A stretch of 64,000 nucleotides of DNA from a plasmid. Made by a program: the position numbers and the translations under genes. The DNA lies in assembly GCF_056746865.1 (NCBI RefSeq), contig NZ_JBWKMP010000003.1. One strand, given 5' to 3'. Each line of letters begins with the position of its first letter. Position 1 is the stretch's first letter. Below, in pieces: positions 4,162-49,327 of the stretch. Below the pieces are notes generated by a model. It saw only the letters and a program-made list of their open reading frames with translations. It was not told the DNA's origin and made no database searches.

Positions 4162-4238
4162 CAGGAGCGGCTACCGCATGGCTGACGGATTTGCGAAGTG
4201 ATCTGGTCGGTGTTTTTTTGGGAAAAAAGTTCCGATTT

Positions 4239-36869: not shown

Positions 36870-37533
36870 TAACCGACCGCTGGCGGTGAGTCTTTGTGAT
36901 TATACAGGGAATATGGTTTCCCCCTGGCTGGAACACGGCATTGATGCAGTCATTGTCGATCCGCAACACCAGGAGTCCGGCAGCCAATTGATGGAGTCAG
37001 GTGCTGTACTCACACGTATCAGCGCAATTATTGACAGTGATGAGGTCTACAATTTCCTTCGGAAAAATTTGCACAGAGTTGTATTTTTAGCCGGTTTCCC
37101 TCCATGTACTGACCTGGCTGTATCTGGCGCACGCTGGTTCGCAGATAAAGCAAAAAAAGATCCGGTTTTCCAGTTCAAAGCAATGCAGGTTGTCTGGCAG
37201 TGTTACGACATTGCAAAGATGATTGGTTGCCCGTACATGATTGAAAACCCGGTCAGCCAAATATCGACATTCTGGCGTAAACCTGATCACATATTCCATC
37301 CTTATCACTTCACTGCATATTGCAAGGAAGACAATTACACCAAAAAAACATGCCTGTGGAGCGGACAAGGATTCATCATGCCAACTCCGCGAATCGACAA
37401 GTCGTTAGGTGATCCAGATAACCGAATACACAAGGCACCGCCAGGGCCTGAAAGAGCGAATTTTCGTAGCGCGACACCTTACGGTTTTGCAAGAGCTGTA
37501 TTTGAAGCAAATAAGGAGGGAATCCGTGGCTGA
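36850..37533 (+). CDS. short C5-cytosine DNA methyltransferase-like protein
   Basis: 227 aa from a GTG start with GGAGG RBS. Motif I-like LCDYTGNM, PC motif LAGFPPCTDLAVSG, ENV-like MIENPVSQ. No target-recognition domain is apparent. Confidence 0.45.
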   Translation, partial: AVKQSINNRPLAVSLCDYTGNMVSPWLEHGIDAVIVDPQHQESGSQLMESGAVLTRISAIIDSDEVYNFLRKNLHRVVFLAGFPPCTDLAVSGARWFADKAKKDPVFQFKAMQVVWQCYDIAKMIGCPYMIENPVSQISTFWRKPDHIFHPYHFTAYCKEDNYTKKTCLWSGQGFIMPTPRIDKSLGDPDNRIHKAPPGPERANFRSATPYGFARAVFEANKEGIRG

Positions 37534-38274
37534 TATTGGTGCTAAATTTATTTCTTATAGCGACAATCATCGTCCTGCGGCGGAAGCCACTATCAGCCAT
37601 ATGCGACGTATTCGCTCGGAGGACGAATTTGATCGCCCAGTCTTTAAGTGGGTCGGCGGCAAATTTTCTGCACTGCCCATTATCTTCGAACACCTGCCCC
37701 ACGGAAAACGGTTGATAGAACCTTTCGTTGGAGGTGGCGCTGTTTTCACTAATGCCGGATTTAAAAGCAACCTGCTGAACGATATCAATAATGACCTGAT
37801 TAACTTCTATCAGACATTGCAGCGTGAAGGGCATTCTCTTATCACACTGGCATATCGTTTTTTTCAGGATTACAACTCTGCTGATGCATTTTTGAATGTT
37901 CGCAATGCATTCAACAATGGTGCTTATGATTCCCTTCACCATGCAGCGGCGTTCCTGTATCTCAATCGTCATTGTTTTAATGGCGTCACTCGCTATAACC
38001 GTAAAGGAGAGTTCAACGTCGGATATGGAAAGCAGAAATCACCCCACTTCCCTCTCGCGGAAATGGAGGCGTTCCTGGCTGACGATATTTCAAAGTATTC
38101 GGAATTTGTGTCCGGCGATTTTGCTGGTGTAATTGAGGCTGCCGGGAATGATGATGTGATTTTCTGCGATCCCCCCTATGAACCATTGCCTGACACTACC
38201 GGATTTACAAATTACTCAGGGCATAGCTTTAGGTTTGAAGATCAACAACGGCTGGTGTCACTGCTGGTGGATGC
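37527..38274 (+). pseudogene. Dam-like N6-adenine DNA methyltransferase, 5' portion, interrupted by IS2
   Basis: GTG start after AAGGAGG. FKWVGGKF (Dam LKWAGGK-like motif I) and DPPY (motif IV). The frame is broken at the IS2 junction after ...LLVDA. Confidence 0.7.
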
Positions 38275-38285
38275 TGGATTTGCCC

Positions 38286-39191
38286 CTATATTTCCAGACA
38301 CCTGTTATCACTTAACCCATTACTGGCCCGCTGCCGTAGATATTCCCGTGGCGAGCGATAACCCAGTGCACTATGCGGATGCCATTCGTTATAATGCTCG
38401 AACGCCTCTGCAAGGTTCTTTGCTGCCGTTAACCCGTCTGGTTTAGGCATGATACTGATGTAGTCACGCTTTATCGTTTTCACGAAGCTCTCTGCTATGC
38501 CGTTACTCTCCGGACTCCGCACCGCCGTGTTCTTCGGTTCAAGCCCCAACATCCGGGCAAACTGCCGTGTTTCATTAGCCCGGTAGCATGAACCATTATC
38601 CGTCAGCCACTCTACTGGAGACGCCGGAAGCTCGTTGCCGAAGCGGCGTTCCACCGCTCCCAGCATTACGTCCTGTACTGTTTCACTGTCGAAGCCGCCC
38701 GTAGTGACTGCCCAGTGCAGTGCCTCACGGTCACAGCAGTCCAGCGCGAACGTGACTCGCAGTTTTTCTCCGTTATCACAGCGGAACTCGAACCCGTCAG
38801 AGCACCATCGTTGATTGCTTTCTTTCACGGCCACTTTGCCAGTATGTGCCCGTTTCGATGGCGGTACAGCGGTTTTTCGCTCAAGCAACAGCGCATTCTG
38901 GCGCATGATCCGGTAAACACGTTTGGCATTGATCGCAGGCATACCATCAAGTTCGGCCTGTCTGCGAAGCAGCGCCCATACCCGACGATAACCATACGTG
39001 GGCAGCTCTCCGATAACATGGTGTATACGGAGAAGCACATCCGTATCATCTGAGTGACGGCTGCGGCGACCATCTTTCCAGTCATCGGTTCGTCTGAGAA
39101 TGACGTGCAACTGCGCACGCGACACCCGGAGACAACGGCTGACTAAGCTTACTCCCCATCCCCGGGCAATAAGGGCGCGTGCGCTATCCAC
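38286..39191 (-). CDS. insD: IS2 transposase InsD (orfB; DDE integrase domain)
   Basis: 301 aa beginning [29 protein letters not shown]... Expressed as an InsCD fusion by -1 frameshifting. Confidence 0.9.
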
Positions 39192-39514
39192 TTTTTTGCA
39201 CGCCCGTATTCAACGGCTTCTTTAAGGAGTTCATTTTCCATCGTTTTTTTGCCGAGCAGGCGCTGGAGTTCTTTAATCTGCTTCATGGCAGCAGCAAGTT
39301 CAGAGGCAGGAACGACCTGCTCTCCTGCGGCCACAGCAGTAAGACTTCCCTCCTGGTATTGCTTGCGCCAGAGAAATAACTGGCTGGCTGCCACACCGTG
39401 TTGCCGGGCAACAAGGGAGACCGTCATTCCCGGTTCAAAACTCTGCTGAACAATAGCGATCTTTTCCTGTGTAGTACGCCGTCTGCGTTTCTCCGGTCCT
39501 AAGACATCAATCAT
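39149..39514 (-). CDS. insC: IS2 InsC (orfA; HTH)
   Basis: 121 aa beginning [41 protein letters not shown]... Confidence 0.9.
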
Positions 39515-39605
39515 CTGCTCTCCAATGACTAGTCTAAAAACTAGTATTAAGACTATCACTTATTTAAGTGATATTGGTTGTCTGGAGATTCAGGGGGCCA
39601 GTCTA

Positions 39606-45488: not shown

Positions 45489-47186
45489 GTGAACAAGAAC
45501 ATTGAGCCAGCTCGTAAGCGCGAGCGCGAGATTATGAATCGGGCGGCAAGCGTCATGGCTATGACCGTCGATCCAACCACTGATGCTGCCGGTAACATGA
45601 TTACCGACAACGAAGTGATGATGGCTAACCTGGAAAAAGCTATCCAGAAAGAGCCAATGTTTGAAGGCGTTGGACCAGAAGCAGCTCGCCAGATCATTGG
45701 TAGCTGGGCCATGTCTATTCATGAATACAAACGCCAGCATGGGCATTATCCGGCAAGCGATGTATTAGCCAACGCCCATGTAGCACTTGAGCGCCTGATG
45801 ATGGAGTCCGCTAAAGAGACGCATGAAGGCGCTGGCAAAGCCATGTTTGAATCAGTAGCCAAGGACATGCGCACCTCCGATGGTGTAATGAAGGTTGCAC
45901 AATATGCCGCACTGATCCTGCCTGCTTCTCTCGGCGCAGCCACCAGCGACGCATGTACGTTTATCCCTTGTGATCGTGATGAAACCAATATTTACGAGCT
46001 GACCAACGTTGCTGGTACAAAATTCGGTACATTCGAGCAGGGCGATGAACTGAACATGCAGTCTGCTGGCGTGTATTCGCAGATGAAACGCCTGTACATC
46101 CTGACCGAAAAAGGCGATGGCAGCAAAACCACCTTCCAGTTTGATATCCAGAACTTCGAAGGCCAGGCCTGCCCGCTGCGCCAGGGCTACAACAAACTGC
46201 TGATTAACCGCAAACCGTCCAAAGTAGATGATGGTGACGGCAACCTGTATTTCAACGACAAAGACGTCAACGGCAACTCTTTCTCTGCTACAGCAAAAGT
46301 TAAATACGATACCGGCGTTATCGATATCACCTTTAATGAAGCACCAGCAGAAGGCACAGAAATCGCTGTTCAGGTTGAAATCAACATTGAACGCAATCCG
46401 AGCCTGATACCAGTCATTAACCAGTCCATGCGCAATTACGCCCTGCGCCCGTCGCAGTACGTGATCGCATCCGAACATACGGTTATGACAGCATCTGACC
46501 TGAGCCGTGAACACGGACTCGAACTGGCAGCATTGCAATTCTCCGCAATGCGCAACTGGATTTCCCACGAAATCGATATGATGCGCCTGCGCACTCTGGT
46601 ATTCCACACAGTTTACGGTCGTGAATTTGATGTGGCACTGCCAGAAGCGCAGAACTACGAATCGTGGGTTGGTTTAATTCGCCATGTAGTGAACGCGCTG
46701 TCACAGGACATGGCTGACCGCACCCTGACTACCGGTATCCGTGGTGGCTTTGCTGGTGGCGATGCTGCTAACTTCCTGCGTTCCTTACCGCCGCAGCACT
46801 TCCAGTTGGCACCGGGCTATGTACAGTCGCCGTACATTCAATACATCGGCACCCTGTTTGGTTCCATTCGTATCTACGAAGTGCCGAAGCCTATCTGCAA
46901 ACAATTCCAGGAACATGGCTACGACTTTGGCCTGGACGACATCTACTTCTATGGTCGTGGCGAAGGCATTGGTAAAGCTGGCCTGGTCGCTGGTGATGCT
47001 GTGCCTGCTATTCCGTATGTCCACGAAACAAATCCAGCCCTGGTAAACCGCACCACTCTTTGGGGTACAGCAATCAACGATGTGCATCCGCGCAACGGTG
47101 AGAACTATTTCACTCGCCTTCGCCTGACACGTTCGAAAGAAGGTGCGATTGACATGTTGAGCGGGCAAATCAACGAAAAAAAGTAG
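45489..47186 (+). CDS. putative major head (capsid) protein
   Basis: 565 aa (about the size of P1 gp23). Followed by an Ig-like decoration-type ORF. A dnaX-type -1 slippery heptamer sits at its stop. No fold-level proof is possible from sequence alone. Confidence 0.4.
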   Translation: MNKNIEPARKREREIMNRAASVMAMTVDPTTDAAGNMITDNEVMMANLEKAIQKEPMFEGVGPEAARQIIGSWAMSIHEYKRQHGHYPASDVLANAHVALERLMMESAKETHEGAGKAMFESVAKDMRTSDGVMKVAQYAALILPASLGAATSDACTFIPCDRDETNIYELTNVAGTKFGTFEQGDELNMQSAGVYSQMKRLYILTEKGDGSKTTFQFDIQNFEGQACPLRQGYNKLLINRKPSKVDDGDGNLYFNDKDVNGNSFSATAKVKYDTGVIDITFNEAPAEGTEIAVQVEINIERNPSLIPVINQSMRNYALRPSQYVIASEHTVMTASDLSREHGLELAALQFSAMRNWISHEIDMMRLRTLVFHTVYGREFDVALPEAQNYESWVGLIRHVVNALSQDMADRTLTTGIRGGFAGGDAANFLRSLPPQHFQLAPGYVQSPYIQYIGTLFGSIRIYEVPKPICKQFQEHGYDFGLDDIYFYGRGEGIGKAGLVAGDAVPAIPYVHETNPALVNRTTLWGTAINDVHPRNGENYFTRLRLTRSKEGAIDMLSGQINEKK

Positions 47187-47290
47187 CAGTGGCGAACGTG
47201 TCAGTTTCACCAACGGCAATTGAAGTAAACGAAGGTGAAACTATCGCCGCAAGCACTTCAAAGACACGAAAAACACCCAAAAAGAAGTAA
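47177..47290 (+). other. candidate -1 programmed frameshift: slippery heptamer A_AAA_AAG (47177..47183) at the stop codon, opening a 35-codon -1 frame extension
   Basis: GAA AAA AAG TAG in frame. The -1 frame reads VAVANVSVSPTAIEVNEGETIAASTSKTRKTPKKK* (stop at 47288..47290). The extension matches the N-terminal strand of a Big_2 Ig-like domain. Confidence 0.35.
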
Positions 47291-47327
47291 GACAAGCCCC
47301 TGAATAGGGGGCTATATGGAGGAAAAA

Positions 47328-47606
47328 ATGGCTGATATTCAGGTAACTATTACCCCACCAAATGCGACAGATAAAACTTTCACTGTCGAATCCGATCATC
47401 CGGAAATTGTGAGTGTTGATGGAACCACATGCACCGCAGTATCTGCTGGTACTGCGGTACTAACCATCAAAACTACAGATGGAAATAAAACCGCAACATG
47501 CACTGTAACGGTTAATGAAGCCGCAGTAAGTGTCAACTCTGTCAGCGTTGATCCGTCAACCAAAGAAGTGACGGTAGGTGACAGCTTCACGGTCGGCGAA
47601 GCCTGA
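47328..47606 (+). CDS. Ig-like (Big_2) domain protein, probable head decoration / Hoc-like
   Basis: 92 aa from MADIQ (GGAGG RBS, 5 nt spacer). IQVTITPPNATDKTFTVESDHPEIVSVDGTTCTAVSAGTAVLTIKTTDGNKTATCTVTV matches the Big_2 consensus lacking its first strand. The C-terminus VSVNSVSVDPSTKEVTVGDSFTV is another first-strand copy. Confidence 0.55.
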   Translation: MADIQVTITPPNATDKTFTVESDHPEIVSVDGTTCTAVSAGTAVLTIKTTDGNKTATCTVTVNEAAVSVNSVSVDPSTKEVTVGDSFTVGEA

Positions 47607-47608
47607 TA

Positions 47609-47637
47609 AAAGCCTCCCCATGCAAATGGGGAGGCTT
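47609..47637 (+). terminator. hairpin AAGCCTCCCCATGCAAATGGGGAGGCTT
   Basis: 11-bp stem immediately after the stop; the U-tract is weak. Confidence 0.45.
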
Positions 47638-47671: not shown

Positions 47672-49327
47672 ATGAATAAAATTGGTTTTTCTGTTGGTCA
47701 GGCGGCGGGCGTTGCGGTAGCGGACGTAAATGCCGATGCTATTCTGTCCAACACATCTGGCGGTGCTTCCGTCTTTGCCGGGCTGGTGATTTCCCGCAGA
47801 GGAGCACCAGGCAAGGTTTTGCAGGTTACAGCAGCCAACTATCAGAGCGTGTTAGGTTCACCTCTTCACCCGCGCACCGGGGCCGCATTTGAACCATATC
47901 GCCACGTTGAACGCGCAGTAAAAGGCGGCACCGGTTATGTGGTTCGCGTATGCGCAAAAGACATGAAAGTACCGGGCATTGCCGTTTCTGTTCAGGCCAG
48001 GTCGAAAAGCACCAAGTCAGCAAAAACTCTGCAAATTGCTCCGACCGAAGCAACGGTAAATATCGGCGATACACTGACCGTTCGTGCCGTTTCTGGAGCC
48101 ACTTCTCCGGTAACTTTCGCTGCAAGCGAAACACCTGAAATTTCCGGCAGTGAACTGGCTATTTTCTACATAAAGGACGGTGATGCTTCGACAAACCGCA
48201 CGTTATCACTGACCCGTGAGGACGAAGAAAATGACCTGTTCACTCTGGAACTGAAAGAGACACAGACCGATGGTTCTGTAGAAACTTTGGAAAGCTACCA
48301 GGTTTCTTTCGATCCGGATGCAACGAACGATATGGGCCAGCCAGCATGGATTCCTGCGTTGTTAGAAAGTCAGTCCTCCAGGCTTGGAGCTGTACTGGCT
48401 GATGGTGCCGAAGACTCCGCTCACTTGCTGACTTTCGAAGATGTAGCGTTTGAAGGCGGTACAGATGGCGATCTGTCCTCAATTGACGCTGATGATTATC
48501 TGAAAGCGTTAGAGGTTCTCGAAGCGTCAGAAGTTAATTATACCGCACTGCTTTCTATGGGCTGCTACGACGCATCCGTGCTGGCAAAAATTAATTCGCT
48601 GGCAGAAGACGTTCGCGTGGATATGTTCTACGACCTGAAATGTGCTCAGACTGGTGATAACGCTATCGCGGAAGCTAAATCACATGGTTTCGGCAAATCC
48701 CACCAGGCTGCACGTTATCACTTCCCGTACTCATGCCGTGACACTTTCAGCGGTATGAATGTGGTTTACGGAATCAGTTGTGATGCGTTCGTGGCAAAAG
48801 CGAAAGGCGTTGCGCTTGTGTCTGATGTAGGCGGCTGGCATTACGCCCCGGCTGGTCTGTCTCGCGCAATCATTGATCGCCAGAACATCACCAGACTCTC
48901 CGGAATTGGCACAATCGATCGTGAAGCGTATGTGACCGCTCGTATTAACCCTGTAAGCGTTGCAGCGGATGGTTCTGTCTACATCGACGACTCCCTGACG
49001 ACATACAGCAAAAATAACTATCTGCGATTCCAGCACGTTTCATCACTGATGAATGCAATTGCCCGCAATTTCTATGAAGTTGCTCAGGCAATCAAGCATG
49101 AACCTGATGGCGTTACGCAGGAAAGTCTGACTAACGCACTGACAGATCTTCTGGACCGTTTTTATGCGGCTGGTGCGCTGGTTACACCACGCGATGAATC
49201 TCAAGGTTCTGACCCTTATGTGGTCAAGGTAACTCAAAAAGACATCGACTTGTGGGAAGTGGAATGGTCCGTGTGCCCAACAGGCACTGCCCGTCGAATC
49301 CTCGGCAAACCAATCCTGATGCGTTGA
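47672..49327 (+). CDS. putative tail sheath protein
   Basis: 551 aa, a large protein between the head genes and the tube-like gene. Assignment rests on size and order only. Confidence 0.35.
   Translation: MNKIGFSVGQAAGVAVADVNADAILSNTSGGASVFAGLVISRRGAPGKVLQVTAANYQSVLGSPLHPRTGAAFEPYRHVERAVKGGTGYVVRVCAKDMKVPGIAVSVQARSKSTKSAKTLQIAPTEATVNIGDTLTVRAVSGATSPVTFAASETPEISGSELAIFYIKDGDASTNRTLSLTREDEENDLFTLELKETQTDGSVETLESYQVSFDPDATNDMGQPAWIPALLESQSSRLGAVLADGAEDSAHLLTFEDVAFEGGTDGDLSSIDADDYLKALEVLEASEVNYTALLSMGCYDASVLAKINSLAEDVRVDMFYDLKCAQTGDNAIAEAKSHGFGKSHQAARYHFPYSCRDTFSGMNVVYGISCDAFVAKAKGVALVSDVGGWHYAPAGLSRAIIDRQNITRLSGIGTIDREAYVTARINPVSVAADGSVYIDDSLTTYSKNNYLRFQHVSSLMNAIARNFYEVAQAIKHEPDGVTQESLTNALTDLLDRFYAAGALVTPRDESQGSDPYVVKVTQKDIDLWEVEWSVCPTGTARRILGKPILMR

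Follow-up and report, generated by a model that had tools for sequence, protein, structure and literature searches.

A probable −1 frameshift site at the end of the major capsid gene of a D6/P1-like phage-plasmid and an immunoglobulin-like domain that appears split between two proteins

Introduction

Why would a phage keep an immunoglobulin (Ig)-like domain in two pieces, one lying in the −1 frame behind the stop codon of its major capsid gene and the other in an open reading frame (ORF) of its own? This question is raised by a locus in a plasmid stretch of 64,000 nucleotides (contig NZ_JBWKMP010000003.1, RefSeq assembly GCF_056746865.1; hereafter, the window, meaning the whole stretch), whose region of interest belongs to a D6/P1-like phage-plasmid of Escherichia. 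Here, the major capsid gene ends on a slippery heptamer that very probably serves as a −1 frameshift site, and the extension that it would add to the capsid protein corresponds to the first strands of a Big_2 Ig-like domain, which are missing from the protein encoded immediately downstream. This arrangement had been noticed in a reading of the nucleotide letters alone (the sequence-only reading), which proposed either a minor capsid variant in the manner of T7 10A/10B or a donor-strand scheme. Its observation is confirmed in every detail that could be checked, while its interpretation is partly supported by the comparative sequence analysis reported here. We favour, with moderate confidence, programmed −1 frameshifting combined with completion of the split Ig domain in trans as the best explanation of why the split has been conserved.

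Results

A slippery heptamer at the capsid stop codon opens a −1 frame

The major capsid protein gene (45489–47186; all features are on the + strand unless stated) encodes 565 residues in the 0 frame and is a homologue of P1 gene 23 and D6 orf51 (phrog_1014, E-value 1.6e-215). Its 3' end reads ...ATC AAC GAA AAA AAG TAG, exactly as had been claimed. The heptamer A_AAA_AAG (47177–47183) spans the last two sense codons in the X_XXY_YYZ phase, (47177−45489) mod 3 being 2, and the 0-frame stop TAG follows it immediately (47184–47186). A stop codon placed beside a slippery run, the 'shifty stop' context, is a classical stimulator (Weiss et al. 1987, as cited in PMC5009743). Ribosomes slipping at this site would enter a −1 frame that is open for 35 codons, the length given by the sequence-only reading, before a TAA at 47288–47290. 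This extension ORF (47183–47290) reads VAVANVSVSPTAIEVNEGETIAASTSKTRKTPKKK and would add 3.6 kDa to the capsid protein, with a predicted trans-frame junction of ...INEKK|VAVANVSVSPTAIEVNEGETIAASTSK in the window and ...VNEKK|VMVANVSVSPTSLDVDEGETIAANTSK in phage D6, where the counterpart −1 ORF is annotated as a separate 'hypothetical protein orf50'. Two parts can be told apart in the extension: a donor segment (VAVANVSVSPTAIEVNEGETIAAS; 47183–47254), which corresponds to Big_2 profile positions 1–21 (strands A/A' and the turn into B), and a basic tail, TSKTRKTPKKK (47255–47287), with an isoelectric point (pI) of 11.4.

The heptamer alone is unremarkable, since AAAAAAG occurs 26 times in the window against about 20 expected. 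Only six of these lie in phase within an open frame of at least 80 codons, and just two of the six open a −1 frame longer than 25 codons. One is the capsid site. The other belongs to an IS3-family insertion sequence (38286–39559, − strand) with an orfA of 136 residues (HTH_Tnp_1) and an orfB of 301 residues (rve), in which A_AAA_AAG at 39197–39191 (−), 13 codons before the orfA stop, opens a −1 frame of 301 codons. Thus, the same heptamer is found in the same window at a classic transposase frameshift site. This IS3-family element also abuts or overlaps the 3' end of a + strand ORF at 37409–38446.

Substitution patterns argue that the extension is translated in the −1 frame. Across four E. coli-type lineages, its ratio of nonsynonymous to synonymous substitution rates (dN/dS) is 0.22–0.6 in the −1 frame versus about 0.5–2.7, or undefined, in the other two frames; by this measure, the −1 ORF evolves as coding sequence under purifying selection. 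Its dS across lineage pairs is 0.25–0.5, which is 3- to 5-fold below that of the flanking genes (for the window and D6, 1.55 over the final 100 codons of the capsid gene and 2.3 over the Ig ORF), and such a depression is expected where an RNA signal overlaps the coding sequence.

An assembly error in the homopolymer, a pseudogenised capsid-Ig fusion or a chance heptamer could also create this picture, and homopolymer errors do occur at this locus in NZ_CP031917.1 and pSa1423, which have shortened A-runs and other indels. The sequence-only reading had raised this concern itself and had named capsid and Ig domain in one uninterrupted ORF as the finding that would refute its interpretation. No relative examined carries such an ORF, and two lineages in which the donor segment is in frame with the capsid gene are still split. 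The identical layout is instead found in phage D6, in metagenomic contigs, in 136 PLSDB plasmids and in 100 of 5426 complete E. coli genomes (about 2%), plasmid-borne each time, and the junction and the −1 ORF recur along with it in homologous phage-plasmids. Similarly, closely related IMG/VR loci keep the G-A7-G junction in 22 of 22 cases and the 35-codon −1 ORF in 21 of 22. We regard an artefact or decay as effectively refuted by these comparisons, with a negligible probability left to it. The apparently 'fused' capsids of NZ_CP031917.1 (L009, E. coli FWSEC0003) and pSa1423-160k (L008) were rejected as homopolymer errors, which are also present elsewhere in those records; the 599-residue 'capsid protein' annotated in FWSEC0003 (WP_250208243.1) accidentally equals the predicted trans-frame product.

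The extension corresponds to the Big_2 positions missing from the downstream ORF

The Ig ORF (47328–47606) encodes an acidic protein of 92 residues (pI 4.1) assigned to phrog_215, 'structural protein with Ig domain'. A Shine-Dalgarno sequence, GGAGG (47318–47322), lies 5 nt upstream of its start codon, and a purine-rich motif of this kind (GGAG, AGGAG or AAGGA) is present at the same place in most relatives; an upstream ATG at 47316, which overlaps GGAGG, is not conserved. A hidden Markov model search against Pfam Big_2 (PF02368, cut-off 22.8 bits) bore out the proposed similarity, as the Ig ORF alone scored above the threshold, at 27.9–28.4 bits. Its match covers positions 22–79 of 79 only: the protein is a Big_2 domain that lacks the first ~21 profile positions and bears a copy of that very segment at its C-terminus (V67–A92, VSVNSVSVDPSTKEVTVGDSFTVGEA; 47526–47603), as the sequence-only reading had noted. 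By itself, the 35-residue extension has no Pfam match, as its length does not suffice for a score. When the extension through GET is spliced to ADIQ..., the resulting 78 residues match Big_2 over positions 1–79 of 79 and the score rises from 28.4 to 43.5 bits (E-value 3e-11), so the spacing that had been called perfect holds. The same is seen in five lineages, in which the core alone covers positions 22/23–79, and donor plus core 1/2–79 with a gain of 8–15 bits.

The C-terminal copy is kept in all 21 aligned family members. We built a donor profile solely from these segments in 21 homologues and searched with it every one of the 1847 stop-to-stop segments that the window yields in six frames; the capsid −1 extension was its sole significant match besides the Ig ORF (E-value 1.5e-7; next best, 5.2). 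This profile also matches the extension peptides of eight other lineages, with E-values below 1e-3 in five.

How widespread are such split proteins? A profile search of 5.8 billion proteins retrieved a family of 91–96 residues, with members down to 40% identity, and all of them are bounded as M-[B..G]-[A/A']-stop. An exhaustive HMMER search with the family profile gave 58,543 matches; the best 150 were all giant multi-Big_2 proteins of 738–6046 residues, and no further small split ORF was found among these 150. The Big_2 domains of other phages' tail and capsid proteins are complete, including those in −1 extension ORFs of the A2 type (P0093/P0109).

Heptamer, −1 ORF and Ig ORF recur together across lineages

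Eight capsid-linked lineages share this layout, and their Ig ORFs show 51–98% identity to that of the window. The window type, D6, E. fergusonii, S. dysenteriae, Enterobacter and the contigs L091, L093 and L094 all have the heptamer unchanged and in phase, and the G-A7-G junction is also found in the D6, E. fergusonii and S. dysenteriae plasmids. Around this fixed heptamer, six diverged lineage groups vary in the stop codon (TAG, TGA or TAA), in the distance from heptamer to stop (0 or 2 codons) and in the length of the A-run (6 or 7). The Enterobacter plasmids (L002, L050), the JGI contig L091 and the Logan contig L093 carry Ig ORFs 52–60% identical to that of the window, and their capsid genes end ...AAA AAG TCN GAG TAA, with the in-phase heptamer two codons before the stop. 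Their −1 ORFs of 24, 45 and 40 codons, respectively, start V(G/R)VTG(V/L)... and encode the same Big_2 strand segment. In L094, the heptamer adjoins TAA and the extension has 25 codons. Lys/Arg-rich tails follow the donor segment in D6, L091 and L093, and short ones are found in the lineages with an in-frame donor described below; Enterobacter and L094 have none, their extensions consisting of the donor segment only. The basic tail could serve in electrostatic capture of the acidic Ig protein, have a role at the capsid surface or reflect a constraint on the A-rich messenger RNA. Lys/Arg-rich C-terminal tails recur more widely in this capsid family, in frame in relatives such as L014, L016–L019 and L024 (including Xenorhabdus) and behind the probable frameshift here.

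These comparisons bear on how the extension would be made. Slippage of RNA polymerase, inserting one A, has to be considered, because seven A precede the G in the window and one added A would give the same protein. Efficient slippage by the E. coli polymerase needs about nine or more A/T, and the run is only six A long in L091 and L093. Moreover, the phase of the heptamer, which is irrelevant to a polymerase, is conserved everywhere. A phased heptamer that is conserved while the A-run varies points to slippage by the ribosome and not by the polymerase, and both the adjacent stop codon and a hairpin 5–10 nt downstream fit the ribosomal mechanism too. Given the conserved phase and the varying A-run, we reject transcriptional slippage as the main route and give this origin of the extension very little weight.

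Even less credible is that the −1 ORF is an independent small gene (orf50 of D6), which would be translated by termination-reinitiation into a free peptide of 33–34 residues. D6 does have a TGATG overlap and an annotated coding sequence, and the window has a GTG at 47189. Against this, no Shine-Dalgarno sequence is visible, and a separate gene would give no reason for the invariance and phase of the heptamer. In Enterobacter, the extension is devoid of in-frame ATG, GTG and TTG and can therefore be made solely as a capsid fusion. In L048/L049 and L092, the segment is simply part of the capsid polypeptide. In view of Enterobacter and these two in-frame lineages, we reject independent initiation.

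The in-frame lineages are informative in another respect. In L048/L049 and L092, the donor segment is fused to the capsid protein without any heptamer (for example, ...GQVNGTSGTVVEGVTLSPASITVSAGDEITAGNTKKDS*); the capsid ORF stops after the donor and is followed by a hairpin, a ribosome-binding site and an Ig ORF of 95–96 residues, whose match again begins at profile position ~23 and whose C-terminus is a donor copy. The break point is thus the same. These lineages indicate that the donor works while attached to the capsid protein, and they suggest that frameshifting, where it is used, would mainly set the number of donor-bearing subunits. Across these sequences, the split of the domain is the conserved feature.

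What happens when the Ig ORF is absent? We examined 16 related loci without it, including Acinetobacter, Pantoea, Cronobacter phage JK004, Citrobacter, Leclercia, Xenorhabdus and P1-type contigs, and all of them have the capsid stop, then a GC-rich hairpin, then the ATG of the sheath gene. In 15 of the 16, no A_AAA_AAG opens a −1 ORF; in the exception, Xenorhabdus contig L019, an in-phase A_AAA_AAG opens only 5 codons. Because no Ig-less relative has a heptamer-opened −1 ORF longer than these 5 codons, we conclude from the compared sequences that heptamer, −1 ORF and Ig ORF co-occur.

One P1-like locus without an Ig ORF, Rosenbergiella metrosideri NZ_JALBCV010000011.1 (L015), has an observation of its own to offer. 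Its capsid gene ends GCG GGA AAG TGA (stop at locus position 4202), which places G_GGA_AAG, a heptamer of the lambda G-T type, in phase and right next to the stop. The −1 frame behind it runs for 72 codons without a stop and encodes a low-complexity sequence rich in Ala, Lys, Asp and Gln. This is possibly a second, unrelated frameshift extension at the same place.

Predicted RNA structures follow the heptamer and the −1 ORF

A stimulatory hairpin is predicted by RNAalifold and RNAfold at 47186–47254, starting 5 nt after the heptamer, with stems 47189–47195/47244–47250 and 47203–47211/47233–47241. Its minimum free energy is −24.1 kcal/mol (z-score −3.4), and the consensus structure is kept in five lineages. 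In the diverged lineages, non-homologous hairpins with z-scores from −1.3 to −3.6 start 5–10 nt downstream of the heptamer.

Between the extension stop and the Ig ORF lies a second kind of structure, a GC-rich hairpin, AGCCCC-TGAATAG-GGGGCT (47295–47313). It is followed by no U-tract and is not a canonical intrinsic terminator on the + strand; Rfam contains no family for either hairpin. Every Ig-bearing lineage has a comparable intergenic hairpin at the same place, and the Ig-less relatives have one immediately behind the capsid stop. Another GC-rich hairpin separates the Ig ORF from the tail sheath gene (47610–47637), also with analogous hairpins in relatives.

We considered whether the extension might be joined to the Ig ORF by ribosomal bypassing of the T4 gene 60 type, which the order AAG-TAA, hairpin, GGAGG and AAA-ATG in the window could mimic. 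This candidate was rejected: the arrangement is not conserved, and in Enterobacter and L048 no take-off codon has a matching landing codon in the correct frame.

The Ig protein is not predicted to complete its own fold

Could the Ig protein do without the capsid altogether? With one acceptor and one donor per ORF, it formally has enough to close a dimer or a ring by domain swapping, or to act as a circular permutant in cis. In addition, the Ig unit aligns contiguously inside tandem Big_2 arrays (positions 3–91), which equals one repeat length in a shifted register. AlphaFold2 (AF2) was run twice on the 92-residue protein, with a family alignment of 21 rows (predicted local distance difference test score, pLDDT, 86) and with an alignment of 101 rows (pLDDT 72), and the models were judged by DSSP, pLDDT and Foldseek. 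In both runs, strands are placed at residues 18–22, 28–31, 34–37, 41–49 and 55–62, and none at residues 1–17, the region of strand B, or at residues 63–92, which include the donor copy. Since neither of these regions forms a strand, the models do not predict self-complementation of the Ig monomer. The core itself is modelled with confidence as Big_2: aligned with the Big_2 domain of 7quz, it deviates by 1.3 Å (rmsd) over 61 residues, and the Ig domain of lambda gpV (2L04) and lambda tail-tube structures are matched as well.

Geometry speaks in the same direction. From the end of strand G (V62) to the donor copy there are only 4–6 residues (N63–A66); in tandem Ig arrays, a stretch this short ordinarily joins one domain to the next and runs outward from the domain it leaves, and we infer the same course here. 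Self-completion would also leave unexplained why a homologous donor is kept on the capsid in every lineage. Overall, we consider it improbable that the protein completes itself.

Neighbouring genes and annotation

About 4 kb around the site are 76% identical in nucleotide sequence to phage D6, whose annotation lists, in order, the major capsid protein (similar to P1 gene 23), hypothetical orf50, the structural protein with Ig domain (orf49) and the tail sheath (P1 gene 22); several plasmids of ~90 kb from E. coli and E. marmotae are 98–99% identical to the locus. In the window, the tail sheath gene occupies 47672–49327 (P1 gene 22 homologue by the D6 annotation; phrog_1036, E-value 4e-189), and PHROG and Pfam scans place baseplate and tube genes after it. 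Residues ~107–160 of the sheath protein resemble the start of a Big_2 domain (KTLQIAPTEATVNIGDTLTVRAVSG...), with no Pfam Big_2 match and a donor-profile E-value of 14. The neighbouring ORFs that were scanned are homologues of capsid, sheath, tube and baseplate proteins or belong to PHROG families of unknown function; no chaperone, usher or protease appeared among them, in scans that were not aimed at such proteins.

The locus is uniformly mis-annotated in public records. Among the RefSeq and PLSDB records examined (for example, NZ_JBYRJZ010000003.1), none marks a frameshift; the capsid gene is labelled 'capsid protein', 'hypothetical protein' or 'DUF8615 domain-containing protein', and the −1 ORF is omitted or listed as a 'hypothetical protein'.

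Discussion

The locus described here joins two elements, a −1 frameshift at the end of a capsid gene, which we hold to be very probably real, and an Ig-like domain whose first strands and core would be made as parts of different proteins. We propose that a fraction of ribosomes slips by −1 on A_AAA_AAG, aided by the adjacent stop codon and by the RNA hairpin 5 nt downstream, which would yield a subpopulation of capsid proteins with a C-terminal extension of 35 residues. With its first ~20 residues, this extension would provide the A/A' strands of a Big_2 Ig-like domain, while strands B to G would be made separately, from the 92-residue ORF with its own ribosome-binding site, as a core that is incomplete when free. 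The capsid-borne segment would then complete the Ig fold in trans, by fragment or donor-strand complementation, and thereby tether an Ig-like decoration to the head. The second donor, at the C-terminus of the Ig protein, has a linker too short to fold back on its own core, and it might recruit a further core, forming a chain or cross-link, or stay free. The comparisons establish the anatomy of the locus, its conservation, the constraint on the −1 frame as coding sequence and the homology of the co-conserved pieces; from these we infer that ribosomes shift here and how efficiently, that the C-terminus of the capsid protein is exposed and that the pieces dock.

Several observations weigh against this proposal. 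With two donors per acceptor, the stoichiometry would be open-ended, and short of a chaperone or cap in the window, nothing obvious would control it. Covariation in the predicted stimulatory hairpin is weak, with 1 compensatory pair in 25 and most pairs invariant. The sequence-only reading had called the site dnaX-type, and while the heptamer and the predicted downstream hairpin fit that label, no conserved upstream Shine-Dalgarno-like stimulator is visible by eye across the lineages (no scan was run); G-rich stretches occur upstream in some, such as AAGG in D6 and GGTGAGG in L093, with neither sequence nor spacing conserved. Finally, there is no signal of co-evolution: the donors encoded by one genome do not resemble each other significantly more than donors taken from different genomes do (the observed score is reached in 86 of 720 permutations).

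The lack of within-genome co-variation between donors is also what one would expect if the frameshift were real and no complementation took place. The split would then reflect the fission of an ancestral, complete, frameshift-encoded Ig domain; the extension would be a vestige or have another role (for example, as a basic tail), and the Ig protein would attach via a different surface or work elsewhere. In favour of such an ancestry, complete Big_2 domains in capsid −1 extensions are the norm elsewhere (ORFs of the P0093/P0109 type; PMC5009743). A useless remnant and its slippery site should have decayed, and the donor segment is instead under purifying selection. Moreover, the same break point is kept among Ig ORFs that are only ~50% identical, including the two in-frame lineages; the core alone is left without strand B and the donor strands in the AF2 models; and the Enterobacter and L094 extensions contain the donor segment and nothing else. 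We therefore consider fission without complementation unlikely, and retain programmed frameshifting with completion of the fold in trans as the preferred explanation.

It is tempting to carry this proposal further. If each Ig protein passed its own donor to the next core, the frameshifted capsid protein could seed a chaperone-free, pilus-like donor-strand polymer, that is, non-covalent Ig fibres or cross-links on the head, with the number of fibres set by the efficiency of frameshifting. We put this forward tentatively and as rather doubtful. The contig L094 (Logan SRR11077323) is of interest here. It encodes at 2238–2444 an extra 68-residue ORF, between the capsid extension and a 91-residue Ig ORF and with no hairpin before it, which contains a Big_2 core only (profile positions 22–79) and no C-terminal donor. 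The chain logic fits L094, because this donor-less core balances two donors with two acceptors, and the 68-residue protein could be a cap that terminates the chain. A search with this core-only ORF retrieved only itself, as a single cluster in the 5.8-billion-protein collection.

If our proposal is correct, this locus would represent a new way of attaching a decoration to a phage head, in which the capsid protein bears only a tag of ~20 residues and the bulky part is added post-translationally by completing a fold. It would also couple translational recoding to the stoichiometry of a non-covalent assembly, and would provide a natural counterpart of engineered split-Ig tag/catcher pairs as well as a possible chaperone-free analogue of pilus strand exchange. 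In our literature searches, no paper was found that describes an Ig domain split between a capsid protein and a separate ORF, and nothing relevant was found on strand complementation and phage capsid Ig domains. The system should be of interest to both the recoding and the phage structure fields and is readily testable with phage D6, which is cultivable.

How does this locus compare with known systems? Among related phages, the P1 virion has been reported without a decoration protein, in a study that does not cover D6 (PMC9024508). The C-terminal domain of lambda gpV (2L04) belongs to the same Big_2 family and is matched by the AF2 core, but it is a complete domain, covalently fused in one reading frame. 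With dnaX (tau/gamma) and the IS3-family elements, the capsid site shares the identical A_AAA_AAG and a downstream stem-loop at 5–10 nt. It differs from dnaX in having no conserved upstream Shine-Dalgarno-like element visible by eye and in the outcome of the shift: the stop abuts the heptamer or lies two codons away, so that the shift would extend the protein, whereas the dnaX shift truncates it.

Folds completed by a foreign strand are known from outside phages. In chaperone-usher pili and in the type V pili of Bacteroidetes, an Ig-like fold lacking an edge strand is completed by a strand of another polypeptide. The likeness to our locus is that of an incomplete Ig-like fold, judged by profile coverage and the AF2 models, and of a matching strand carried on another polypeptide, here, as judged by sequence only, the capsid extension and the C-terminus of the Ig ORF. 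The type V pili are topologically closer, as their missing piece is N-terminal and the donor lies at the neighbour's C-terminus, which allows head-to-tail chains. The differences are, however, considerable: the setting of the locus is cytoplasmic, its sequences are unrelated to those of the pili, and the scanned neighbour ORFs, in scans not aimed at such proteins, included no chaperone, usher or protease. In addition, the donor is here a piece of three segments (A, A' and the turn into B) rather than a single strand, and the first donor would come from a frameshifted capsid protein. Thus, the pilus donor-strand systems offer at most a mechanistic analogy, not membership.

Capsid genes that end in a frameshift are the closest comparison. 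T7 10A/10B uses a −1 frameshift close to the capsid stop to make a minor capsid protein of greater length, which co-assembles; the sequence predicts the same here. The T7 extension is not Ig-like (PMC5009743), and it has no partner ORF to complete it. The T7-style variant proposed in the sequence-only reading is therefore true as far as it goes, but leaves the conserved split unexplained. In T3 (gp10B), Lactobacillus phage A2 (gp5B) and the Listeria phages A118 and A500, −1 frameshifting adds Ig-like domains to major capsid proteins, and among such phages the Ig-like extension is obtained via frameshifting or by in-frame decoding with no apparent difference (Fraser et al., as cited in Atkins et al. 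2016, PMC5009743). Our locus resembles them in that its major capsid gene finishes on a −1 slippery site, in the predicted minority product with Ig-like (Big_2) sequence and in having relatives with the segment either out of frame or in frame, apparently with equal success. In the known cases, the extension holds the complete Ig domain; here, it contains only profile positions 1–21, and the remaining 58 positions belong to a cistron of their own, which is preceded by a hairpin and a ribosome-binding site and includes a second copy of the donor. Frameshift-added Ig domains on capsid proteins are thus already known, as a textbook example of recoding, and the new element is the split domain: the described ones lie wholly within the extension, while here the domain appears to be naturally divided between two proteins and has been kept that way across many lineages.

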